Source of the DNA: Candidatus Thorarchaeota archaeon
GTDB lineage: Archaea > Asgardarchaeota > Thorarchaeia > Thorarchaeales > Thorarchaeaceae
Reading direction: 5' to 3'
DNA: 64,000 bases
NCBI GenBank assembly: GCA_003345595.1
Contig: PRDI01000099.1
Span: forward strand, 1-64,000
The translations under genes were made by a program, and so were the position numbers. The notes beneath the pieces are model-generated. The model was not told the origin of the DNA. It did no database searches and was given only the letters and a program-made list of their open reading frames with translations. Every line of letters begins with the position of its first letter. Positions within the stretch are counted from its first letter, which is position 1. This document shows, piece after piece, positions 47,781-64,000 of the stretch.

Positions 47781-48671
47781 TTAAAGAAATCTGTCAACAA
47801 GTGCATCTGTGCTGATGACATGTTTGTGAAGGCCAAGTTCCTCGGGATCTATCCCCATTGCCAGACCAAGCAGCTGCGTGTAGTAGAACACAGGAAGATG
47901 ATACCTGTCGCCAATCTCCTTGTTTAGCTGAGGTTGAGACATCTCGAACTGGAGGTGGCAGAACGAACAGACATCTACTATGCACTCCGCCCCTGCCTCA
48001 ATCATGTTGTCAAGCTTCTCACGTGCAATGTCTATGCTGACGGGCACATTTGACCCGCGGACTCCACCACCAGCGCCACAGCAGAGGAACTTCTCCTTGT
48101 ACTTCACACTCTCTGCACCCGTGACTTCGACAAGCTCATCAAGGAACGTGTATTTCTGAGTCTGCTTCCAAGGCCTGAGCTTGGTCGGCTTCAAGAGGTG
48201 ACACCCATAGTGTGTTCCGACCCTCAGCCCGTTCAGAGGGCGGGTCACCTTCTTGCGCAGGTTCTCCAACCCGAGGTTGTAGATGATCTCGACGAGGTGC
48301 TTTGCATCAGCCTTTGCCTCATACTTCACACCAACACTCTTGAGGATCCGCTGGACCTCCTTGAGCCTCTCGGGGTTCTCATGGACCACGTGGAGGGCCT
48401 CTTTGAATGTCCCATAGCAGCCATTGCAGCCTGTGAGTATGTCATGGCCTGCTGCTTCTGCGAGTGCGAGGTTCCGTGAGGCGAGGGCAAGCCATGTGGG
48501 CTCACTGAATGACCTGATCACCCCGGGGGCAGGACAGCAGCTCGCGCCCTGCAAGTCCTCTATGTCAATCCCAAGTTTCGGGAGCACAACCCTGATGCTC
48601 TTCTCCACATTGGGAAACCGGTTGGGCATGACGCATCCCAAGAAGAATGAATAGGTCTGAGCTTGCGTCAT
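47781..48671 (-). CDS. hdrB: Heterodisulfide reductase subunit B (copy 1)
   Basis: FLGC, CCPAPG, CNGC, GCH, CCGAGGG, CSFC. Confidence 0.95.
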   Translation of the reverse strand: MTQAQTYSFFLGCVMPNRFPNVEKSIRVVLPKLGIDIEDLQGASCCPAPGVIRSFSEPTWLALASRNLALAEAAGHDILTGCNGCYGTFKEALHVVHENPERLKEVQRILKSVGVKYEAKADAKHLVEIIYNLGLENLRKKVTRPLNGLRVGTHYGCHLLKPTKLRPWKQTQKYTFLDELVEVTGAESVKYKEKFLCCGAGGGVRGSNVPVSIDIAREKLDNMIEAGAECIVDVCSFCHLQFEMSQPQLNKEIGDRYHLPVFYYTQLLGLAMGIDPEELGLHKHVISTDALVDRFL

Positions 48672-48673
48672 CT

Positions 48674-49255
48674 CTAGTTAGCCCCTGCTCCCTCTCCCTC
48701 GACTAGAGCGTTGAACCCTGTCTGCCTCATTATCTCCTTGACCTGAGCGAGTGCCTGTTCGCTGGAGTGCGTTGTAGGAGGTATCTCGACGATGCCAAGT
48801 TCTCTCCGCATCTCTTGGTTTGCATCGTCTAGTGGGACTGCATGACCCGTCTGGAGCAGCTTCTGAGCCGACTTACGATGCTGTGGCAGCATGAACCCTT
48901 CCTTGACAGCCATGTTCCGCATTATGATGATTGCGTCTGTGACCTTGATCTGTCTTGGACACCTTTCGAGGCAAGTTAGGCATGTGGCACAAAGCCAAAG
49001 GTCGGGCGAACTCAGCACGTCCTCTTTGAGACCGAGCAGAGCCTTCCGCATGAGTTCACGTGTCCTGAATGCGGTTCGACGTCCGCTAGGGCAGACACTA
49101 GAACAAGTCCCGCATTGGATGCAGGTGCGTATTCTGTCTGCACCTGCTGCGACAATCTTGTCTACGAAGGTAGGGTCTATGTCTGCGCTCCGAATGGTTT
49201 CACGGCTGATGTCGCCCATTAGTATGTCCTTCGATGCAGTGGTGCTGTCAGGCAT
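48674..49255 (-). CDS. hdrC: Heterodisulfide reductase subunit C (copy 1)
   Basis: CIQCGTCSSVCP, WLCATCLTCLERCP, GHAVP. Confidence 0.95.
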   Translation of the reverse strand: MPDSTTASKDILMGDISRETIRSADIDPTFVDKIVAAGADRIRTCIQCGTCSSVCPSGRRTAFRTRELMRKALLGLKEDVLSSPDLWLCATCLTCLERCPRQIKVTDAIIIMRNMAVKEGFMLPQHRKSAQKLLQTGHAVPLDDANQEMRRELGIVEIPPTTHSSEQALAQVKEIMRQTGFNALVEGEGAGAN

Positions 49256-49309: not shown

Positions 49310-50395
49310 TCATTGGAAATTGTACTTCTCGCTTGACAGGAGACCTGCGTTTCCGATTCTGACATTAGTGAGGCCTGCGTCTTGAGCAGCCTTCACTGCC
49401 GCCTCTGCATGCGCTCTGCTAGTGCATGGCAGGTCACTCATCATATGGTGAGGGTAGAATCCTAGGAGCGCAGTCGGGACAGTTGGGTCGCAGGATGCAA
49501 TGAAGGCGGCAAGACTTCTGACCTCAGACAGGCCTATGTAGCCCGGGATGAGAAGTATGCTAGCAATGAGAAACTCTTCCTTGCGTTTCCTTCCCCGTTG
49601 CGCCAATGCTCTGAAGTTCCTGAGGACAGTCGTGTTGGACACACCTGTCAATGCAGTGTAGAGCTCAGGAGAGTACGCCTTCAGGTCGAACTTGATTGGC
49701 CCTCTGCTCTCCCAGACAACATCCGCAATCTGCTGTAGCCACTTGCCGGAGATCAGGCCATTGGTTTCATAGCATATCTTCACATCTCGTTCTTCGCGAA
49801 GGAGCTTCGAGGTTTCGACCGTGTGCCATGCATTACACGAGGGATCGCCGCCGAAATAGCAGACGCATGCGGTCCTGTCGTCAGCCACTGCCGCGAGTTC
49901 AGAGGGGGTCATCAGAGGAGTCCCTCTCCCCATCATGCCTCGATAGCTTATGTTCTGACAGAACAGACAGTCTGAGCTGCATGTGCCATAGAATACGGCG
50001 AGGTTTTTTAGATAACGTGCATAGGGGCTGTATGCCCCGTTGCAGTGAGTCAGCGAACATACCCAGTCTGCTACGCAGTTGGTGGGCAGCAGGTCGAAGT
50101 ACCACGACACAACTGCTTTGCCGGGATACCTCTCAGCGATTCGTGAGTCAGTAACGGTCCTCAGGTGACAGAATCCATTCTCGCCCTCGTCAAGCCTGCA
50201 ATGATTTGCACATTCCGGGCACACTATTGCGCCGCCCTTTGGGACTGTCGGGACTAAGCCATCGTTCTGTCTGCTGGCCCAATGCACTCTCATCACGCGT
50301 TTCAGAGATGCACTGTTCGCCTCTAGGCACTCAGGACAGCACCCTATGGACTTCGAAATGAGTCGCCCTTCAAGGGCGTGATTTGGACAAAACAT
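49310..50395 (-). CDS. Radical SAM protein, PflA/AmmeMemo-like, with Cys-rich N-terminus
   Basis: CSSDCLFCQN, FGGDP, ETNG, KFDLK, NVRIGN. Confidence 0.9.
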   Translation of the reverse strand: MFCPNHALEGRLISKSIGCCPECLEANSASLKRVMRVHWASRQNDGLVPTVPKGGAIVCPECANHCRLDEGENGFCHLRTVTDSRIAERYPGKAVVSWYFDLLPTNCVADWVCSLTHCNGAYSPYARYLKNLAVFYGTCSSDCLFCQNISYRGMMGRGTPLMTPSELAAVADDRTACVCYFGGDPSCNAWHTVETSKLLREERDVKICYETNGLISGKWLQQIADVVWESRGPIKFDLKAYSPELYTALTGVSNTTVLRNFRALAQRGRKRKEEFLIASILLIPGYIGLSEVRSLAAFIASCDPTVPTALLGFYPHHMMSDLPCTSRAHAEAAVKAAQDAGLTNVRIGNAGLLSSEKYNFQ

Positions 50396-51315: not shown

Positions 51316-51903
51316 TTGCCTAGGTGGACAGACTTGACCGTGGCCGAAGAGAAACCTCCAGTCGACGTAGACACAGTGGACTTGGATTTCATCCAGATGA
51401 TCAAGAAGACAGGAGGGCCAAACATTCAGAGCTGTTATCAGTGCGGTACTTGCTCAGGATCGTGCCCCGCGGGTGCTCGCACAAACTATCTCGTCAGGGG
51501 AATCATCAGAAAGGCACTCCTCGGCCTGAAGAAGGAAGTCATCTCAGCTCCGGAACTCTGGTACTGCACCACATGCTACATGTGTACTGATAGATGCCCA
51601 CAGGACGTGAAGCCGACAGATGTCATCAAGGCGATTCGCAACGTTGCGGTCGAAGAGGGATATATGCTGAAACCCCACCAGGACGTTGCGAAGAAAGTCC
51701 TAGAGGCTGGACACGCGGTACCGCTCGACAAGGACACCTGGTCTGCTCTCAGGCAGAAGTCGGGTCTCGAGCCTCTGCCCCCCAACGGTTCGTCGAATCC
51801 AAAGGTGGCTGAAGAGATACGCAAGATGGCCAAGAAGAGTGGATTTGACAAGCTCATTGGATATAGCGATACACCTCCGCCGGCAGAGAAGAAGGAGAAG
51901 TGA
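51316..51903 (+). CDS. hdrC: Heterodisulfide reductase subunit C (copy 2)
   Basis: CYQCGTCSGSCP, WYCTTCYMCTDRCP, GHAVP. Confidence 0.95.
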   Translation: MPRWTDLTVAEEKPPVDVDTVDLDFIQMIKKTGGPNIQSCYQCGTCSGSCPAGARTNYLVRGIIRKALLGLKKEVISAPELWYCTTCYMCTDRCPQDVKPTDVIKAIRNVAVEEGYMLKPHQDVAKKVLEAGHAVPLDKDTWSALRQKSGLEPLPPNGSSNPKVAEEIRKMAKKSGFDKLIGYSDTPPPAEKKEK

Positions 51904-52838
51904 ACAACTTGTCGAAGAGGCCTGCGTACTATCATTTCTTGGGCTGCATCATTCCTCACCGGTATCCGAGCATCGAGAAAGCTGCCAAGTTGGTCTTCAA
52001 TGACCTCGGGATCGACTTGCTAGACATGGTGGGTGCTAGTTGCTGTCCTGCCCCCGGAGTCTTTGGTTCATTCGACAGGGTGATGTGGGCCACAATCGCG
52101 GCGCGCAATCTCACCATCGCAGAACAAGGCGGTCACCCACTTACCACAGGCTGCAACGGTTGTTTTGCCAGTCTCTGGGACGCGAATCACGAGCTGAAGG
52201 AAGACGAAGAACTTAGAGCGGCTGTCAACCGCAATCTGGCCGAGATTGGACGAGAGTTCAAAGGCACGACAGAAGTCACCCACTACATCGATGTTCTCTA
52301 CGGTGTTGCGGGTATGCAGAAGCTGAAGGAGCATGTCACACATCCATTCACTGGAGTGAGAATGGCACTTCACCCAGGGTGTCACTGGATGCGTCCAGCG
52401 TTGGTCAAGAAGAAGGACAATAGCGAGCGTCCTCACATATTCAGGGAGATCTGCGAGGCCACAGGAGCAAAATACGTTCACTACAAGGATGAGCTGATGT
52501 GCTGCGGAGCTGGTGGTGCAGTCCGCACAGCAGACGTCAAGATTGCGCTTGAATTCACAAAGCAAAAGTTCGACAGTATCCTCGCAGCCGGTGGTGCCGA
52601 TGTGATTGTGACTCCCTGCCCCTTCTGCCTCCTTCAACTGGACATGGGTCAAGTGGAGATTCAGAAGATCTTCGGGGTTGAGTACAAGTTCGACGTGATG
52701 CATGTTGCCGAGTTGCTCGCGTTGGCATTTGGGCATCAGCCAGAGGAGTTTGGGCTTGCGAGCCATCTACAGTACGCCCAGAGGAAGACCGAGCCAAACT
52801 GGCAGCGACTGAAACTGAGGGCCAAGGCAACCGCATAG
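51900..52838 (+). CDS. hdrB: Heterodisulfide reductase subunit B (copy 2)
   Basis: FLGC, CCPAPG, CNGC, GCH, CCGAGG, CPFC; GTGA overlap. Confidence 0.95.
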   Translation: MNNLSKRPAYYHFLGCIIPHRYPSIEKAAKLVFNDLGIDLLDMVGASCCPAPGVFGSFDRVMWATIAARNLTIAEQGGHPLTTGCNGCFASLWDANHELKEDEELRAAVNRNLAEIGREFKGTTEVTHYIDVLYGVAGMQKLKEHVTHPFTGVRMALHPGCHWMRPALVKKKDNSERPHIFREICEATGAKYVHYKDELMCCGAGGAVRTADVKIALEFTKQKFDSILAAGGADVIVTPCPFCLLQLDMGQVEIQKIFGVEYKFDVMHVAELLALAFGHQPEEFGLASHLQYAQRKTEPNWQRLKLRAKATA

Positions 52839-53859: not shown

Positions 53860-56800
53860 ATGATGGCAGAGGCCTCAGTAAAACCCGTCGTTATCATAGG
53901 CGCTGGGATCGCAGGCATTCGCGCAGCCCTCGATCTCGCAGGCATGGGCGTCAAGGTGTACATGGTTGAGAAGCAACCATCTATCGGCGGGCACATGGCA
54001 CAGCTCGACAAGACATTCCCCACACTGGACTGCTCCATGTGTATCATGGGTCCGTGGATGGTCGACTGTTCCCGACACCCGAACATCACAATCATGGCCT
54101 ACTCGGAGGTTGTTGGCGTATCAGGGGAGCGAGGGGACTTCAAGGTGAAGGTCTTGAAGCACACTCGCCGTGTAGACCCCAGCAAGTGTACTGGCTGTGG
54201 TGAATGTCAACGCGTATGTCCCATCGAAGTTCCCAACGAGTATGACCTTGGCCTGAAGATGCGAAAGGCCGCCTACATTCCATTTCCTCAGGCAGTGCCC
54301 AATATCGCGACGATCGACATTGAGAACTGCATCCAGTGCATGACCTGCGTGAATACCTGCAAGGCCCAAGCCATCAACTTTGAGATTTCTGATGAAACCG
54401 TTGAGATCAACGCAGGCGCTCTGATCGTCGCCACTGGCTATGCGTTACTAGATGCTTCAACCGTGCCAGAGTACGGCTACGGCCGGTTTCCTAACGTTGT
54501 CACGAGCCTTGAGTATGAGCGGATGGTTTCCGCAAGTGGGCCCACTGGAGGAGTCTTGGTGCGTCCTTCTGACGGTCGGGAGCCTCATCACATCGCCTTC
54601 ATACAGTGTGTCGGCTCACGCGATGTGAATCACTGTGCTTACTGTTCTAGGATCTGCTGCACTTATGCCACAAAAGAGGCCATCATCACAAAGGAGCACA
54701 CGCCAGACGTGCACATTGACATATTGTACAATGACCTCCGCGTCTTTGGCAAGGGGTTCGAGGAATTTCTGGTCCGGGGCGAGAAGGAGTATGGGATTAC
54801 ATACGTCAAAGGCCTACCGAGCGAGATATCCGAGGACTATGAAACACACGACTTGTCCATTCGACACAGTGACACCAAGGGGCGGGAGGTACTGCAAGAC
54901 AAGTATGACTTAGTGGTCCTTTGTCCTGCAATGGTGCCCAACGAGAATGGCGCCCTCTTCAAGAAGCTCGGCATTCAAGTCGACAACTACGGCTACGTAC
55001 AGGGTCTCAGCGAGCAGATTGACAGCGTCCAATCAGGCGTGCCCGGAATCAGCATCTGTGGGACCGTGAACAGGCCAAAAGATATTCCTGATTCTGTGAC
55101 GCAAGGCAGCGCAGCTGCTGCACTTGCTGCACTCGACGTGGTCATACCTAAAGCCGCCGAAACAGAAGTCCTGACAGAGAAAGACCTCGATCTCATGACT
55201 GCGGAGCCGCGGATTGGCGTGTTCATCTGTTCCTGCGGTATCAACATCGCTGGGACCGTGGATGTTGCGGAAGTCACCCGATATGCGGGTACTCTGCCAA
55301 ACGTTGTTCACTCTCAAAATCTGCTATACTCATGCTCATCTGATGCTCAAGTCGTCATCAAGGACGCCATCAAACAGCACAAGCTCAACCGAGTAGTAGT
55401 CGCGTCCTGCACTCCAAGAACCCATGAGCCCCTCTTCAGAGCGACAATCGAGCAGGCAGGGCTCAACAAATATCTCTTCGAGATGGCCAACATCCGAGAG
55501 CATTGTTCATGGATTCACCAGTCCGTCAAGGATGAGGCCACCTCCAAGGCGATGGACCTCGTGCGAATGGCAGTTGCGAAGTCAAGGCTGCTAGAACCTC
55601 AGGAAGAGGCGGTAACGAAGGTAGAGCCCGCAGCCCTTGTCATCGGTGCAGGGGTAGCCGGCATGTCTGCTGCGGAGCTGATTGCAGGGAAGGGCTTCAA
55701 GGTCTATTTGGTCGAGAAGGAGAAGCGGGTCGGAGGACTCCTGAAGGATCTACGTACTGTGAGCTTCGATTTCAAGCCCGCTGCAGAAGTCATTGGAGAA
55801 CATGAGTCCTCGATCAAGAACGCGCCAGGCATTGAGCTGATGCTTGGCTCTGAGGTGACAGAAGCAAAGGGCTCGATTGGTGACTTTGAGGTCACCGTCA
55901 CAACGGGAAAGAAGCAGAAGCAGCTGAAGGTCGGAGTGGTCGTCGTAGCAACCGGGGCTGTTCAGCTTGACGAGAAAGGCCTCTATGGTCTTCACAAGAT
56001 TCCCGACGTGATGACGGAGCTTGAGTTCAACCAATGGCTCGGGCAAGAGGAAGCGATGCAGGACGACCAGACCTTTGCAGTCATCCACTGTGCAGGATCG
56101 CGGGAGGATGAGTCGCTCGAAGGTGCCCGGACATGGTGCTCTGCTGTTTGCTGTACTGTTGCTCTCGAACATACACTCGAGCTGCTTGAGAAGCACCCCG
56201 GCTCACGGGTGTTCCACATATACAGAGACCTCAGGGTTTCCTATGCAGGTGAGGACAAGTATCGCGAAGCCCGGAAGAAGGGTGTTGTCTTCATCAGGTT
56301 TGACAAGGACTCTCCGCCAGAGGTGAAGAAGGGGAAGAACAAAGCACTCAGGGTCGAGGTCACTGACCAGATACTCGGGGCCAAGCTTCTGCTAGATGTA
56401 GATCACGTGATTCTGGCCACTGCCATGGTCCCCCGCGAAACAAACAAGCAGGTTTCAGAGCTGTTCAAGGTGCCACTGAACATGTCCGGCTTCTTCATGG
56501 AGGCCCACCCCAAGCTGAGGCCTGTAGACTTCCAGACTGACGGTATTTACGTCGCTGGCACTGCCACTGCCCCGAAGTCAATCGACGAGGCAATCTCTCA
56601 AGGCAGGGGCGCTGCTGCGAGAGCCCTTGTGCCCTTGGTCAGCGGGATAAGAAAGGCTGAGGCTATAGTCTCTGTCGTGGACCCCGAAGTATGTGTTGGA
56701 TGCGGGACTTGCGAGATCAACTGCGCCTACAACGCGATTGAGGTGGTCCCGGGTGAGGGCGGACACGATTATGCGGTTTCGAATCCTGTTTTGTGCCAAG

Positions 56801-57315
56801 GGTGCGGCCGTTGCGCAGCGGGGTGCCCAAGTTCCGCTATCACAATGAAGCACTTTACCGATGACCAGATACTCGCCCAGATACGCGCCGCTCTTCAGGA
56901 TGTGCCTGCCAACCAGTCACGCATACTCACAATTGTCTGCAACTGGTGCAGTTATGCAGGAGCTGACAACGCAGGAGTATCGAGACTGCAGCAGCCGACC
57001 AACGTGCGCGACATCCGTGTGATGTGCACAGGGCGTATCAGTGTGACACACATTCTCGAAGCATTCAGGCTAGGGGCTGACATGGTCTGGATATCAGGTT
57101 GCCACATCGGTGACTGCCACTACGTGGACGGCAATATCGCATTTGAGAGACGGTTCGCCATTGCCAAGAAGATCATTGAGAAGGCTGGGCTTGAAACCGA
57201 GCGCCTGCAGTTTACTCATATCAGTGCGAGTGAGGGCTCAATCTGGGCTGAAACTGTCAGAAAGCTGTCTGAGCTTGCTGACAGACTAGGTCCTAGTCCT
57301 CTCAGGCAAAGGTAA
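53860..57315 (+). CDS. hdrA: Double HdrA-like protein fused to MvhD
   Basis: Two GAGxxG FAD domains, DKTFPTLDCSMC, two CxGSR...CSxxCC motifs, internal VFICSCG domain, two ferredoxin domains, C-terminal CNWC/MCTGR/GCHIGDCHY. Confidence 0.95.
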   Translation: MMAEASVKPVVIIGAGIAGIRAALDLAGMGVKVYMVEKQPSIGGHMAQLDKTFPTLDCSMCIMGPWMVDCSRHPNITIMAYSEVVGVSGERGDFKVKVLKHTRRVDPSKCTGCGECQRVCPIEVPNEYDLGLKMRKAAYIPFPQAVPNIATIDIENCIQCMTCVNTCKAQAINFEISDETVEINAGALIVATGYALLDASTVPEYGYGRFPNVVTSLEYERMVSASGPTGGVLVRPSDGREPHHIAFIQCVGSRDVNHCAYCSRICCTYATKEAIITKEHTPDVHIDILYNDLRVFGKGFEEFLVRGEKEYGITYVKGLPSEISEDYETHDLSIRHSDTKGREVLQDKYDLVVLCPAMVPNENGALFKKLGIQVDNYGYVQGLSEQIDSVQSGVPGISICGTVNRPKDIPDSVTQGSAAAALAALDVVIPKAAETEVLTEKDLDLMTAEPRIGVFICSCGINIAGTVDVAEVTRYAGTLPNVVHSQNLLYSCSSDAQVVIKDAIKQHKLNRVVVASCTPRTHEPLFRATIEQAGLNKYLFEMANIREHCSWIHQSVKDEATSKAMDLVRMAVAKSRLLEPQEEAVTKVEPAALVIGAGVAGMSAAELIAGKGFKVYLVEKEKRVGGLLKDLRTVSFDFKPAAEVIGEHESSIKNAPGIELMLGSEVTEAKGSIGDFEVTVTTGKKQKQLKVGVVVVATGAVQLDEKGLYGLHKIPDVMTELEFNQWLGQEEAMQDDQTFAVIHCAGSREDESLEGARTWCSAVCCTVALEHTLELLEKHPGSRVFHIYRDLRVSYAGEDKYREARKKGVVFIRFDKDSPPEVKKGKNKALRVEVTDQILGAKLLLDVDHVILATAMVPRETNKQVSELFKVPLNMSGFFMEAHPKLRPVDFQTDGIYVAGTATAPKSIDEAISQGRGAAARALVPLVSGIRKAEAIVSVVDPEVCVGCGTCEINCAYNAIEVVPGEGGHDYAVSNPVLCQGCGRCAAGCPSSAITMKHFTDDQILAQIRAALQDVPANQSRILTIVCNWCSYAGADNAGVSRLQQPTNVRDIRVMCTGRISVTHILEAFRLGADMVWISGCHIGDCHYVDGNIAFERRFAIAKKIIEKAGLETERLQFTHISASEGSIWAETVRKLSELADRLGPSPLRQR

Positions 57316-57366
57316 CGACTCCTCAAGAGTGTAGAAGGGGTCGGTTGAATCTCTCTCGGTGCAATC

Positions 57367-57402
57367 GTCTGCCCGGACAGGGCCTGGGGGCCCTGACCAG
57401 AC
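57367..57402. terminator. GC-rich hairpin between convergent genes
   Basis: CAGGGCC-TGGG-GGCCCTG, extended by GG/CC and GTCT/AGAC. Confidence 0.45.
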
Positions 57403-57428
57403 AGGTTGTCTACTCTCTGGGTGACTGT

Positions 57429-58034
57429 TTAGGGCATGCTACCAAGAAACGAACCCAGAATCAGTAGCCCGATAATGACTAGAAGAAAGAATATGATGCA
57501 GATGCAGGATCCACAGCCACCGCGTCCTTTGAAGAATATCCTGTCAACAACGACCGCAGACGCGACGGCATGTAGCCAGTCCATGTAGTCCCCTACTGAA
57601 ACACGGAACTGGTCCCTGACCGCCAGTATCTTCTTGTCAAGCCGGAAGGCGAATGCACCCACACTGTTGTTTGCCTCAAAACCCCATGCCAACAGTCCGC
57701 CTTGGGCTTTCAACACGTCGTCACGATAGAAGATCTTGAAGTTCTTGCGGAGAGCAATCCATGGCCGCGTGAGCTTCGCGATCGTCTTTCCCTCGCGATC
57801 CTTGAGCCAGAAGGTCTTGTCAAAGAAGCCTCCCTTTGCAGTGAGAATCTTATTGCCTTGAGCATCCTCGAAATTAACTGTTGACCTGAAGATGCTGAAC
57901 CAAGTTTGCCTTGCAATCGCGATCTTCTCACCTGTCTGTTCATCATATATCTCGAATACAGGTCGCGCCGCTATAATCTTCTGAACGACCTTGAAGTTAC
58001 GGTGCCCACCTGGTGTGCTTTTGCCTACTTCCAC
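57429..58034 (-). CDS. LURP-one/scramblase (Tubby-C-like) protein with C-terminal TM anchor
   Basis: FKVVQKI...FEIYDE, beta-hairpin repeats, VRDQFRV, ASAVVVD helix, CGSCIC + TM. Confidence 0.8.
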   Translation of the reverse strand: MEVGKSTPGGHRNFKVVQKIIAARPVFEIYDEQTGEKIAIARQTWFSIFRSTVNFEDAQGNKILTAKGGFFDKTFWLKDREGKTIAKLTRPWIALRKNFKIFYRDDVLKAQGGLLAWGFEANNSVGAFAFRLDKKILAVRDQFRVSVGDYMDWLHAVASAVVVDRIFFKGRGGCGSCICIIFFLLVIIGLLILGSFLGSMP

Positions 58035-58203
58035 TGATGATACCTCTCTTGTTGTCGCGCCTTACTATGCTATTAAACAATAGTCGTTTCTCTAGGTCCG
58101 AACCAAGCCCAGCGAGGTGTCTGCCCATCCCGGCGCGGCCAAGACACTACTGATATAAGAGGGCGGTTTTCCGTCGGCTCCGTCATTGCTCCGAGGTGGA
58201 ATC

Positions 58204-58725
58204 ATGGCGACTGAGACCTGGGGCCAGCTCAAATCCCTTGAAGGCAGCAAGCTCGAAATCCTTGACGCTGAGTTCACCAGAGAGGTGTCAAAGATTATCG
58301 GAGGTCAGGACCTCACTGCATGCTTCCAATGTGCGAAGTGCAGTGGTGGATGCCCCGTTTCTGACAAAGTGAATGTGCAGGTACATCAACTGATGAGGAT
58401 GCTTCTCTTCGGTCTTGAAGAAGTCCTCAAGACAGACATGGTCTGGCTATGCACAACTTGTTACCAGTGCCAACAGAGATGTCCTCAAGGTATCAACATC
58501 ACTGACATAATCTTCGGTCTCAAGAATATGGCCTTTCGTAAGGGCATTAACCCACCCGGCTATGTTGCATCACGGAAAGCACTGTACGACTCGGGCAAGC
58601 TCTATGAACCGACTGACTGGGAGCGAGATGACCTTGGTCTGGGTCCGGTCCCGCCTTTGGATGTCGCCGAGACAAGGAAGGTCTTAGACAAGACTGGGCT
58701 GATGAAACTCCGGGAGGGCGAGTGA
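58204..58725 (+). CDS. hdrC: Heterodisulfide reductase subunit C (copy 3)
   Basis: CFQCAKCSGGCP, WLCTTCYQCQQRCP; ATG 58204 after GAGGTG. Confidence 0.93.
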   Translation: MATETWGQLKSLEGSKLEILDAEFTREVSKIIGGQDLTACFQCAKCSGGCPVSDKVNVQVHQLMRMLLFGLEEVLKTDMVWLCTTCYQCQQRCPQGINITDIIFGLKNMAFRKGINPPGYVASRKALYDSGKLYEPTDWERDDLGLGPVPPLDVAETRKVLDKTGLMKLREGE

Positions 58726-58726
58726 T

Positions 58727-59602
58727 ACGACTCAGACCTATGAGGTGTTCCTCGGGTGCGCGATTCCCAATCGTTTCAATAACTATGAGGCATCAATGAG
58801 GGCGGTCGCGAAGGAGCTGGAAGTCGAGCTTCTGGACTTTGAGGGCGCATCATGTTGTGGGACGGTAGTTCTGAAGTCCATCGATGAACCTAGCTGGCTG
58901 GCCCTGTCGGGGAGGAACATCGCACTTGCGGAGAAGCGCGGACACGACATAGTCACCCCCTGCAATGGCTGCTTTGGATCGCTCAAGGATACTGCTCACA
59001 TCTTGAACCATGATGAGGCTGTGCGGAAGACGACTAACAAGACGCTGATGGCACTCGGGCTCAAGTTCACAGGCAGGGCCAAGATACGACACTTTGTCGA
59101 GGTTCTGTACGACATGAGAAACGAGATCAAGGGCAGAATCGTGAAACCACTCACTGGACTCAGAATTGCGTTTCACCCGGGATGCCATCTTCTACGACCC
59201 TCGACAGTTGCTGGTTTCGACGACCCTGAGCTTCCTCACAAAGTCGATGAGCTTCTGGAGCTGACTGGTGCGAGGAGCATACCTTGGGGGCTCAAGTTGA
59301 GATGCTGCGGTTCGCCTCTGCTCATTGCCAGCGAAGCCGTTGCTTCAAGCGTGCTGAAGGAGAAGATGATATCAGCGAGAGAGGCCGGCGCTAGTTGTGT
59401 CGTCACCAATTGCCCTGCATGTCACACACAGTTTGACGTTCAGGTCCTCGGACTGAAGGATGAGGGCGGTCAGCCACTTGAATTGCCCGCGCTGTTCGTG
59501 ACCCAAGTTCTTGGTCTGGCCATGGGTCTGGAGCCCGACAGCTTGGGCCTTCAACTGAATAGGGTTTCACTTGACCCAATTCGTGATGTGCTTGGTATCT
59601 AG
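58727..59602 (+). CDS. hdrB: Heterodisulfide reductase subunit B (copy 3); start uncertain (ACG 58727 or GTG 58745)
   Basis: FLGC, CCG, CNGC, GCH, CCGS, CPAC. Confidence 0.92.
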   Translation, partial: TTQTYEVFLGCAIPNRFNNYEASMRAVAKELEVELLDFEGASCCGTVVLKSIDEPSWLALSGRNIALAEKRGHDIVTPCNGCFGSLKDTAHILNHDEAVRKTTNKTLMALGLKFTGRAKIRHFVEVLYDMRNEIKGRIVKPLTGLRIAFHPGCHLLRPSTVAGFDDPELPHKVDELLELTGARSIPWGLKLRCCGSPLLIASEAVASSVLKEKMISAREAGASCVVTNCPACHTQFDVQVLGLKDEGGQPLELPALFVTQVLGLAMGLEPDSLGLQLNRVSLDPIRDVLGI

Positions 59603-62509: not shown

Positions 62510-64000
62510 CTATTCCTTGAGCATTGCCTCTATCTCTTCCATGTAGCTCTTCTCACGCCACCAACGCAAATCACGAGCACCTGTCGGGCAGATTGCAGCA
62601 CATGCACCGCAACCCTTGCACCTCATTTCATCGGTCACGCTCTTCTTGACCCCCGGCGAAACCTCCATCATGGTGATTGCGTCGTAGGGGCAAATCTCAG
62701 AGAAGTGACAAAGATCACAGCCGACACATAGATCCTGATCTACTTCTGCGGTGAGCAGTTCAATCTCGACCTTGCCTAGATTGAGCGGGATGCAGGTTTC
62801 ACTAGCCGCGGCACGACCCTGATTGATCGAGTCTGCCACGTTCTTCGCATATGTTGTACCCAAGAACACACCCGGTACTGTGGTTTCAACAGGTCGGAAC
62901 TTCATGTGCATCTCACGCAGGAACCCATCCTGTCCCCTGTTGATGCCCATGGCCTTCACGAGGTCAGCCACATCATGCGGAGCTTCAAGGCCCACTGCAA
63001 GCACAACCATATCTGACCTGATCTTGAATGCCTGCTGCGACAGAGTGTCATAGACTGTAACTATCGCCTCATCTGCGTCTGGCGCCTTCTCTACGGTGAC
63101 GGGCCTCTCACGGACCCATCGAAGATACGTGACGCCCTCCTGCCTGTTCTCACGCCACATCTCCTCCATTCCAGTTTCATAGGGCCGGATGTGCTCCTTG
63201 AAGGCTGAGAATACTCTGATGCTTGGAAACATCTCCTTGAGCTCATGCTGCATGGCCACAATCGCAGAACAACAGACTCTGGAGCAGTATCTGTTGCCCT
63301 CACCCGGATTCTGTCTTGAACCCACACAGTGTATGAAGATGGGGTTCTTGGGCGGTGTCTTGACCTCATCATTCCTGAGCTTCTTCTCAAGGTCTAGCGT
63401 GGTCATGACCCCCGGCACCTCACCCCACCCGTACTCGCCCTTCTTGGGCTGATAGGTGTCAGTGCCAACAGGCATGAGAATCGAGCCGACCTTGTACGTT
63501 GTTCGTTCCTTGGTCGCGACGTTCTCGACTGCCACATCGTAGTTCCCATACGCCCCTTCAAGCCCCATGGGTCTTGAGTTCAGAACAACCTTGATTCTCT
63601 TCTCTTTGCCCACGCGAGCCGTCAAATCGTCCACAATGTCCTTCGCAGACTCCATCTTCGGAAACAGTCGATGCAGTTCGTTAAGTCTTCCACCAAGGCG
63701 TTCAGACTTCTCAACTAGAATGACATCGAAGCCCCGTCTGGTGATATCCAGTGCCGCCGTCATCCCAGACACTCCGCCACCGACGACCATCGCGGTTCTG
63801 ACCACGTCGATGGACTTCATTGGGATGACTTCATTGTTGATTGCCTTTGCCACGGCGCTACGGATCATGTCCTGAGCTTTCTCTTGGCGTTCCTCAGCGG
63901 TCGCTCTGGCGTTCACAAGAGAGAGTTGTTCCCTCAGACCCACAGGACCGACGAAGTAGTATCTTGAGAGACCTGCTCTCTCCAGTACACCTCTGAAAGT
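62510..64000 (-). CDS. hdrA: Second HdrA-like protein, 5' end outside the window
   Basis: Frame open to 64000 (TFRGVLERAGLSRYYF...); GGGVSG, HCVGSR, CSRVCC, HMKFRPV, C-terminal ferredoxin. Confidence 0.9.
   Translation of the reverse strand, partial: TFRGVLERAGLSRYYFVGPVGLREQLSLVNARATAEERQEKAQDMIRSAVAKAINNEVIPMKSIDVVRTAMVVGGGVSGMTAALDITRRGFDVILVEKSERLGGRLNELHRLFPKMESAKDIVDDLTARVGKEKRIKVVLNSRPMGLEGAYGNYDVAVENVATKERTTYKVGSILMPVGTDTYQPKKGEYGWGEVPGVMTTLDLEKKLRNDEVKTPPKNPIFIHCVGSRQNPGEGNRYCSRVCCSAIVAMQHELKEMFPSIRVFSAFKEHIRPYETGMEEMWRENRQEGVTYLRWVRERPVTVEKAPDADEAIVTVYDTLSQQAFKIRSDMVVLAVGLEAPHDVADLVKAMGINRGQDGFLREMHMKFRPVETTVPGVFLGTTYAKNVADSINQGRAAASETCIPLNLGKVEIELLTAEVDQDLCVGCDLCHFSEICPYDAITMMEVSPGVKKSVTDEMRCKGCGACAAICPTGARDLRWWREKSYMEEIEAMLKE

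Follow-up and report, generated by a model that had tools for sequence, protein, structure and literature searches.

A predicted single-chain, asymmetric HdrA dimer with an attached MvhD domain in a Thorarchaeota genome

Introduction

The first 64,000 nucleotides of contig PRDI01000099.1 (forward strand; Candidatus Thorarchaeota archaeon, GenBank assembly GCA_003345595.1), referred to here as the window, contain an open reading frame (ORF) in which two HdrA-like halves are followed by an MvhD domain. This locus raises the question of whether one polypeptide can take the place of the HdrA dimer and, if so, whether one or both of its flavin sites would bifurcate electrons. An earlier note, made from the sequence alone, had proposed that the two halves are complementary, with one bifurcating flavin and one structural or repurposed flavin, and that the single chain replaces the dimer. 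That proposal agreed with all of the elements that could be tested here, and the encoded protein is probably a single-chain asymmetric HdrA dimer with MvhD attached, belonging to a widespread family of fused double HdrA proteins. Asgard archaea are the closest known relatives of eukaryotes and carry many Hdr paralogues whose substrates are unknown.

Tandem and fused forms of HdrA in which Cys197 and the N-terminal domain are distributed in a complementary manner have been described, together with the rule that Cys197 ligates the cluster of the N-terminal domain in trans and the proposal that in anaerobic methanotrophic archaea (ANME) fused HdrA acts as its own heterodimeric partner (PMC9012536). 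A later study named such proteins type II HdrA, defined K409 and E356 as the bifurcation residues, and found both retained in both flavin domains of most type II HdrA (PMC12054007). Fusions of two HdrA domains with MvhD have also been reported in Thorarchaeota and Lokiarchaeota (PMC11237513); in the part of that survey available to us, the fusion is catalogued without a residue-level or mechanistic reading.

Domain architecture

The translated ORF was intact and encoded 1151 amino acids (aa) arranged as a first domain resembling thioredoxin reductase (TrxR) with an inserted ferredoxin, a linker, an HdrA N-terminal cluster domain, a second TrxR-like domain, a C-terminal ferredoxin, and MvhD (Table 1). 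Sequence alignments to the solved HdrA chains 5odc_A and 8rvu_a placed aa 10-369 on HdrA 146-506, corresponding to the TrxR domain with its inserted ferredoxin, aa 449-602 on HdrA 3-156, corresponding to the N-terminal cluster domain, and aa 855-1014 on HdrA 494-652, corresponding to the C-terminal ferredoxin. Pfam matches included two Pyr_redox_2/NAD_binding_8 regions (Rossmann folds binding flavin adenine dinucleotide [FAD] or NAD(P)), near aa 10 and aa 593, and 4Fe-4S dicluster domains at approximately aa 104-172 and 939-996. The C-terminal segment had the full length and the conserved Cys set of MvhD/FlpD: aa 1020-1150 matched the MvhD chains 7bkb_F, 9sw2_D, and 5odc_D (E values of 1e-37 to 1e-40; best, 6e-40), and FlpD (PF02662) covered aa 1022-1144 over model positions 1-123 of 123 (E value, 1e-42).

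As the earlier note had described, the first half (half 1) contained the inserted ferredoxin and CSRICCTYATK and had no N-terminal cluster domain, whereas the second half (half 2) contained the N-terminal cluster domain, the C-terminal ferredoxin, and MvhD but neither DCxxC nor the insert. Half 1 begins right at the Rossmann GxGxxG motif, and an unrelated class I aldolase gene ends 85 bp upstream; because the gene starts at the Rossmann fold so soon after its neighbor, the N-terminal domain of half 1 is truly absent.

Two existing family labels did not fit the protein. The canonical HdrA models NF041778 and NF041891 were rejected, with scores of 731.3 bits against a cutoff of 1400 and 747.5 bits against a cutoff of 1300, respectively, in three separate stretches; canonical HdrA, with about 650 aa and one TrxR domain, was also ruled out by the permuted and duplicated domain order. 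HdrA2 (NF040770; about 777 aa, one HdrA unit plus MvhD) was rejected on the basis of the two flavin domains and 1151 aa found here. The NF040770 score of 1155.9 bits passed the cutoff of 1100 solely because three stretches, drawn from two flavin domains, were added together, and HdrA2 would thus be the wrong name for the protein. Automatic annotation with this "exception" model may therefore give double HdrA-MvhD proteins the HdrA2 label. Public names of the relatives ranged from "hydrogenase iron-sulfur subunit" to "FAD-dependent oxidoreductase."

Conservation of cofactor-binding and bifurcation residues

The motifs of half 1 comprised DKTFPTLDCSMC at aa 50-61 and CSRICCTYATK at aa 262-272, and those of half 2 comprised ICSCG (aa 456-460), C492, C517, REHC (aa 546-549), and CSAVCCTVALE (aa 760-770). 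By alignment, HdrA Cys197 corresponded to C61 (in DCSMC, with C58 as the other Cys of the DCxxC motif), Glu356 to E220, and Lys409 to K272, and the [4Fe-4S] cluster of the first TrxR domain was assigned to C250, C262, C266, and C267. Residue-by-residue alignment of half 2 to 8rvu_a placed Asn724 at the position of HdrA Glu356 and Glu770 at that of Lys409; non-Cys residues occupied the DCxxC stretch, and the approximately 80 residues of the inserted ferredoxin were missing. Half 2 nevertheless retained GxGxxG and the TrxR-domain [4Fe-4S] cysteines (C744, C760, C764, and C765).

Conservation was counted over 108 aligned full-length relatives. C58, C61, E220, and K272 of half 1 were invariant, as were, in both halves, the FAD-binding glycines and the four TrxR-domain cluster cysteines. 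At the half 2 position equivalent to Lys409, Glu was found in 48 relatives, Asp in 17, Lys in 14, Asn in 9, and Arg in 7; at that equivalent to Glu356, Asn was found in 47, Glu in 27, Ser in 16, and Arg in 13. The contrast between CSAVCCTVALE in half 2 and the Lys of half 1, drawn in the earlier note, was thus borne out by the alignment of FAD-contact residues, with Lys and Glu invariant in half 1 only. Because the half 1 residues are invariant and their half 2 counterparts vary, the constraint expected of a bifurcating flavin appears to hold for half 1 only.

The remaining cluster ligands were similarly constrained. All eight cysteines of the inserted ferredoxin (C110, C113, C116, and C120; C157, C160, C163, and C167) were invariant, as were those of the C-terminal ferredoxin (C945, C948, C951, and C955; C979, C982, C985, and C989) and five cysteines of MvhD (C1027, C1030, C1056, C1081, and C1086). 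In the N-terminal domain of half 2, C457, C459, C492, and C517 were invariant and C549 was variable. The complementarity proposed in the earlier note therefore held: the only N-terminal cluster domain of the chain is in half 2 and its only trans-ligand Cys, C61, is in half 1, while the single inserted ferredoxin belongs to half 1 and the single C-terminal ferredoxin, with MvhD, belongs to half 2. This complementary loss was common to all 108 relatives, in which the Cys197 equivalent was present only in the half without the N-terminal domain.

Structural prediction

AlphaFold2, run on the whole chain with a 101-sequence alignment, gave a mean predicted local distance difference test (pLDDT) score of 87.2 and a predicted template modeling (pTM) score of 0.87. 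Mean pLDDT in the two 10-residue blocks of the linker region (aa 431-450) was 58 and 67, among the lowest internal values. In structural comparisons (Foldseek, VIA-align), half 1 (aa 5-430) superposed on HdrA 149-575 of 8rwn_A (Z score, 32.2; root mean square deviation, 1.6 Å; 48% identity), and half 2 (aa 448-1014) superposed on HdrA 2-652 (Z score, 33; about 559 residues aligned), with the insert as the unaligned part. In a model of this kind, a pTM of 0.87 over 1151 residues would need a confidently fixed placement of the halves relative to each other, and we infer that they pack in a dimer-like manner.

Relatives and origin of the fusion

More than 100 full-length relatives (1132-1217 aa) from independent assemblies were found in a large protein collection, matching end to end (97-100% of length) with 47-96% identity. 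Identity was 73-96% in metagenome-assembled genomes (MAGs) of Thorarchaeota and 47-52% in Loki-, Hel-, Hod-, Hermod-, and Baldrarchaeota and Bathyarchaeia, and the host looks like a Thorarchaeota-like Asgard archaeon by these matches. The recurrence of the full-length protein in so many independent assemblies shows that the fusion is real. An artifactual origin of the long ORF, through loss of a stop codon or misassembly of separate hdrA, hdrA, and mvhD genes, is scarcely credible. Separate, adjacent genes for the three parts do occur in this genome, on contig C125, but those split paralogues are only 30-48% identical to the corresponding halves, and proteins of about 1150 aa recur at the lengths and identities given above.

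The split set on C125 (L002:1535-12001) comprised hdrC, hdrB, hdrA of the half 1 type (460 aa), hdrA of the half 2 type (583 aa), mvhD, mvhG, and mvhA, with neighboring genes overlapping at start and stop codons, and was preceded by a gene for a 922-aa HdrA with a GltD/NfnB-like insertion. The split half 2-type subunit kept the Lys but not the Glu. The two halves of the fused protein were 22-30% identical to each other; identity to the matching split subunit was about 48% for half 1 and 30-35% for half 2. In the phylogeny of each half, the halves fell in two different old clades: in the flavin-core tree, half 1 units grouped with split half 1-type subunits and canonical HdrA, and half 2 units grouped with split half 2-type subunits, with weak support for the deep nodes (0.17-0.59). 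Because the halves lie in different clades, nearer to their split counterparts than to each other, they probably descend from an old heterodimer pair. A recent internal tandem duplication was rejected on the same grounds, given the two old clades and the low identity between the halves.

A scan of one genome per GTDB species gave at least 598 loci, of which the best 80 were kept. Among these 80, collinear double HdrA proteins (about 1010-1030 aa, matching aa 1-1012) were found in Desulfobacterota, Chloroflexota, Planctomycetota, and a Geobacter MAG, as well as in Thermoplasmata, Methanomassiliicoccales, Bathyarchaeia, Methanosarcina sp. DH2, Methanoperedens, and ANME-2. In this set, MvhD was usually encoded by a separate gene just downstream, and the three-part fusion was seen in Thor-, Sif-, and Promethearchaeia and a few bacteria. 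ORFs of ANME-2, Methanoperedens, Methanosarcina sp. DH2, and Geobacter sp. UBA698 were collinear with aa 10-1010 at 41-44% identity. In the family to which a Geobacter MAG belongs, 41 sampled genomes yielded only a single double HdrA of the ordinary kind, along with two NuoG-like fusions that were unrelated.

For both halves, the main clade of fused proteins was well supported (0.94-0.98) and excluded the triple fusion of Thor- and Sifarchaeia; in the half 1 tree, the triple fusion grouped, with weak support (0.51), with split pairs of Sif- and Promethearchaeia, ANME-2, and Thermoplasmata. Although a single fusion event has been proposed for type II HdrA (PMC12054007), these placements suggest that there may have been more than one.

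Comparison with known fused HdrA proteins

A close analogue with a published structure is BamE of the class II benzoyl-CoA reductase of Geobacter metallireducens, a fused HdrA dimer described in a 2026 cryo-electron microscopy preprint (bioRxiv 10.64898/2026.04.10.717634). According to that preprint, the bifurcating FAD of BamE is in TrxR1, with Lys280, and the FAD of TrxR2, with Gln768, does not bifurcate and is mainly structural; a Cys59-Cys62 pair and seven [4Fe-4S] clusters (E1-E7) are present, and an MvhD-type [2Fe-2S] adaptor lies between the C-terminal ferredoxin and the bifurcating FAD. As compared by the paper's description and residue numbers, K272 corresponds to Lys280, C58-C61 to Cys59-Cys62, and E770 to Gln768. 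The protein encoded in the window would be expected to bind two FAD, seven [4Fe-4S] clusters, and one [2Fe-2S] cluster; with K272, E770, and C58-C61, the seven predicted [4Fe-4S] clusters mirror the description of BamE and support one bifurcating and one non-bifurcating flavin. Unlike the fused, all-Cys MvhD found here, the MvhD homologue BamF is a separate, larger, selenocysteine-containing subunit. In the Geobacter complex, the tungsten enzyme BamBC receives the low-potential electrons and the HdrD-like BamD those of high potential, whereas ordinary HdrB and HdrC genes are adjacent to the fused gene in the window.

The protein also resembled type II HdrA (HdrA3/HdrA4; ANME, Methanosarcina, and Methanoperedens) in having two TrxR domains and a complementary distribution of Cys197 and the N-terminal domain, and the type II HdrA of ANME-2, Methanoperedens, and Methanosarcina were collinear with aa 10-1010 at 42-44% identity. 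It differed from them in that type II HdrA have MvhD as a separate gene and, for the most part, a second flavin domain in which Lys and Glu are retained; they are also often clustered with FdhB and a molybdopterin protein and form a clade separate from the window protein in both halves (0.94-0.98). The text of PMC9012536 states that the N-terminal HdrA of fused forms carries the N-terminal cluster domain; in fused Methanoperedens and ANME-2 proteins collinear with the window protein (L027:7983-11045 and L032:9785-12907), the first half was without this domain. Either other fused classes exist or that description is inverted.

Among other relatives, tandem pairs of the HdrA5/6 type have one subunit with Cys197 and the insert and no N-terminal domain and another with the N-terminal domain and the C-terminal ferredoxin; the set of this type on C125 consists of three separate genes, 30-48% identical to the corresponding parts of the fusion. 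HdrA2 of Methanosarcina acetivorans (NF040770; PMC5296606) likewise has MvhD fused to the HdrA C terminus but has one flavin domain (model length, 777) compared with two here. The two-HdrA and MvhD fusions catalogued in the Thorarchaeota and Lokiarchaeota survey (PMC11237513) have the same architecture and come from the same lineage. The window protein thus has the features of a fused double HdrA of the type II/BamE-like kind, namely, two TrxR-like FAD domains, complementary loss, and collinear full-length similarity. The presence of Lys and Glu in the first domain only was true of BamE and of the window protein's clade, not of the whole double-HdrA family.

That both flavins bifurcate, giving two bifurcation events per chain as proposed for type II HdrA generally, is very improbable for this protein. 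Most type II HdrA keep both bifurcation residues in both domains (PMC12054007), and of 94 wider relatives, 53 had Glu plus Lys in the second domain; here, however, Asn724 and Glu770 occupy these positions, which vary among close relatives, and the BamE structure weighs against such a reading. Moreover, because half 2 is without DCxxC, a second N-terminal cluster partner, and the inserted ferredoxin, there would be no low-potential outlet for a second bifurcation.

Proposed electron path

By homology, electrons from a donor module would reach the FAD of half 1 by way of the clusters of the C-terminal ferredoxin and the [2Fe-2S] cluster of MvhD; N5 of this FAD would be contacted by Lys272, with Glu220 holding Lys272 in place. 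Bifurcation would occur at this flavin. The high-potential electron would pass through the half 1 [4Fe-4S] cluster (C250, C262, C266, and C267) to HdrC and HdrB for disulfide reduction, and the low-potential electron would pass to the N-terminal-domain cluster of half 2, for which C61 of half 1 would provide the trans ligand, and then through the two inserted-ferredoxin clusters of half 1 to ferredoxin. Half 2 would be mainly a structural partner that provides the N-terminal cluster domain, the C-terminal ferredoxin, and MvhD, with its own flavin non-bifurcating; this role is proposed because the bifurcation residues and every low-potential branch have been lost from half 2 while FAD and the [4Fe-4S] cluster have been kept.

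Several observations weigh against this scheme. The retention of Lys and Glu in the second flavin domain of the wider family (53 of 94 members, as above) means that a loss of function in half 2 does not apply across the family, since most members keep both residues, and two bifurcation sites have been proposed for such proteins (PMC12054007). The loss of Lys and Glu from the second flavin domain of this protein is clade specific. The equivalence of Gln768 and Glu770 is one of numbering and spacing only, with 488 residues between the paired positions in BamE and 498 here. A donor module was not found among the adjacent genes, and no hydrogenase adjoins the fused gene. In addition, the two different hdrCB pairs flanking the gene hint that the half 2 cluster may also dock a catalytic module.

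The architecture, the idea of a heterodimer in one chain, and the split between a bifurcating and a non-bifurcating flavin have already been published for close analogues, and as a discovery the protein adds little to a design already in the literature. It is, however, predicted to be a clean and compact asymmetric example, in which each chain has a single working bifurcation path and also carries the adaptor, and it could serve as a convenient single-polypeptide target for expression and structural work.

Gene neighborhood and host genome

The hdrC1 and hdrB1 genes upstream of the fused gene, in the same orientation, likely encode the disulfide-reductase module of the complex (Table 1). Searches with the flanking genes (tblastn) showed that their upstream placement was conserved in a second Thorarchaeota locus (L003). 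A more divergent pair, hdrC2 and hdrB2, lies downstream; in L003, hdrC2 starts 10 bp past the fused hdrA. HdrB1 and HdrB2 were 36% identical, and all HdrB paralogues retained the ten cysteines of both non-cubane cluster sites.

Table 1. Positions of the fused gene, its predicted domains, and neighboring features in the window
Feature	Position	Strand	Basis or remarks
HdrA (half 1)-HdrA (half 2)-MvhD fusion, whole gene, 1151 aa	53860..57315	+	ORF; Pfam, NCBIfam, and PDB sequence matches; AlphaFold
Half 1, aa 1-430: TrxR-like FAD domain 1, predicted bifurcating flavin site	53860..55149	+	HdrA alignment, VIA, conservation
Inserted ferredoxin domain of half 1, ~aa 101-180, 2x[4Fe-4S]	54160..54399	+	Pfam Fer4 104-172
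Linker between halves, ~aa 431-448 (~18 residues)	55150..55203	+	Low pLDDT, variable alignment
HdrA N-terminal cluster domain of half 2, aa 449-585	55204..55614	+	Alignment to HdrA 3-156, conservation
TrxR-like FAD domain 2 of half 2, aa 586-932, predicted non-bifurcating flavin	55615..56655	+	8rvu_a alignment, conservation
C-terminal ferredoxin domain, aa 933-1015, 2x[4Fe-4S]	56656..56904	+	Alignment to HdrA 494-652, Pfam Fer4_7 945-993
MvhD domain, aa 1020-1150, [2Fe-2S] adaptor	56917..57309	+	Pfam FlpD, MvhD chains, invariant Cys
hdrC1	51316-51903	+	TIGR03290, 187.9 bits, above cutoff
hdrB1	51900-52838	+	TIGR03288, 376.9 bits, above cutoff; ten CCG-domain Cys all present
hdrC2	58186-58725	+	TIGR03290, 105 bits, below cutoff
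hdrB2	58745-59602	+	TIGR03288, 270 bits, below cutoff; ten Cys all kept
Third hdrB/hdrC pair	47781-48671 and 48674-49255	-	Both above NCBIfam cutoffs
Radical SAM gene	49310-50395	-	Adjoins third hdrB/hdrC pair
Orphan 201-aa ORF	57429-58034	-	No NCBIfam match; LOR/LURP-one match subthreshold only
Second fused double HdrA, 1048 aa, without MvhD	62510-64000, on to contig position 65656 (L001:5511-8657)	-	Intact ORF

This arrangement bears on a different role for half 2, as a working non-bifurcating redox arm whose FAD and [4Fe-4S] cluster link the second module, HdrB2C2, to the complex, so that one asymmetric HdrA would serve two distinct disulfide-reducing or thiol-oxidizing sites. The invariance of the four TrxR-domain cluster cysteines and the FAD motifs of half 2, the presence of flanking hdrCB pairs both here and in L003, and the conserved non-cubane cluster cysteines of the HdrB paralogues would all fit such an arm. 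It is nonetheless unlikely. In the BamE structure, the second FAD is said to lie outside the electron-branching path and to have a mainly structural role; the additional hdrCB pairs could belong with other HdrA paralogues or with the second fused HdrA, located 5 kb from the first; and the synteny is shown by two loci only. We consider it equally doubtful that the Thorarchaeota-clade chain carries two different HdrBC modules, one per flavin domain, and that its fusion arose from a split operon independently of the main type II clade. If that were true, one scaffold would couple two distinct thiol/disulfide substrates in a non-methanogen, and the domain without Lys and Glu would be a non-bifurcating entry or exit point. 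A mainly structural half 2 with a single bifurcating flavin in half 1 remains the preferred reading.

McrA (PF02249) was not found in the genome of the host, which is 83% complete, while control genomes gave matches; the disulfide is therefore unlikely to be that of coenzymes M and B (CoM-S-S-CoB). The term CoB-CoM heterodisulfide reductase, in the functional sense that presupposes an Mcr-bearing methanogen or methanotroph as host, did not apply, and the nearest relatives were from Asgard MAGs. The only Mvh genes seen were those beside the split hdr set on C125. No benzoyl-CoA reductase gene of the BamB/BamC type was seen among the annotated flanking genes (approximately 47.8-64 kb of the window).

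The second fused double HdrA was 38% identical to the first and lies about 5 kb away. Its half 1 retained the second Cys of the CxxC motif and the Lys, and its half 2 had Ala at the Lys position and kept the Glu. TAG recoding of this gene was rejected, as the 1048-aa ORF is intact and the flagged "in-frame TAG" lies outside it.

The third hdrBC pair and the radical SAM gene are divergent from hdrC1, and the same layout was present in L003. An 870-bp gap (57316-58185) separates the fused hdrA from hdrC2, compared with 10 bp in L003.

In 28 mostly bacterial double-HdrA genes (L010, L012, L014, L018, L019, and L024, plus 22 other GTDB loci), TGA was found at the codon for C61, the Cys197 equivalent, and the reading around it was otherwise continuous, as DKTFPTNDCxM-[TGA]-I(L/V/I)(A/S)PK; this TGA most likely encodes selenocysteine. 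Six downstream MvhD genes had TGA at the C1030 position; the window gene has TGT and TGC codons instead. Two loci in Geobacter-family genomes (L084 and L085) encoded another HdrA fusion variant, with proteins of about 1116-1137 aa that matched aa 127-1017 of the query and had a NuoG/HydA-like 2Fe-2S N terminus; the flanking genes were a NuoF-like gene and possibly a MetV-like one.

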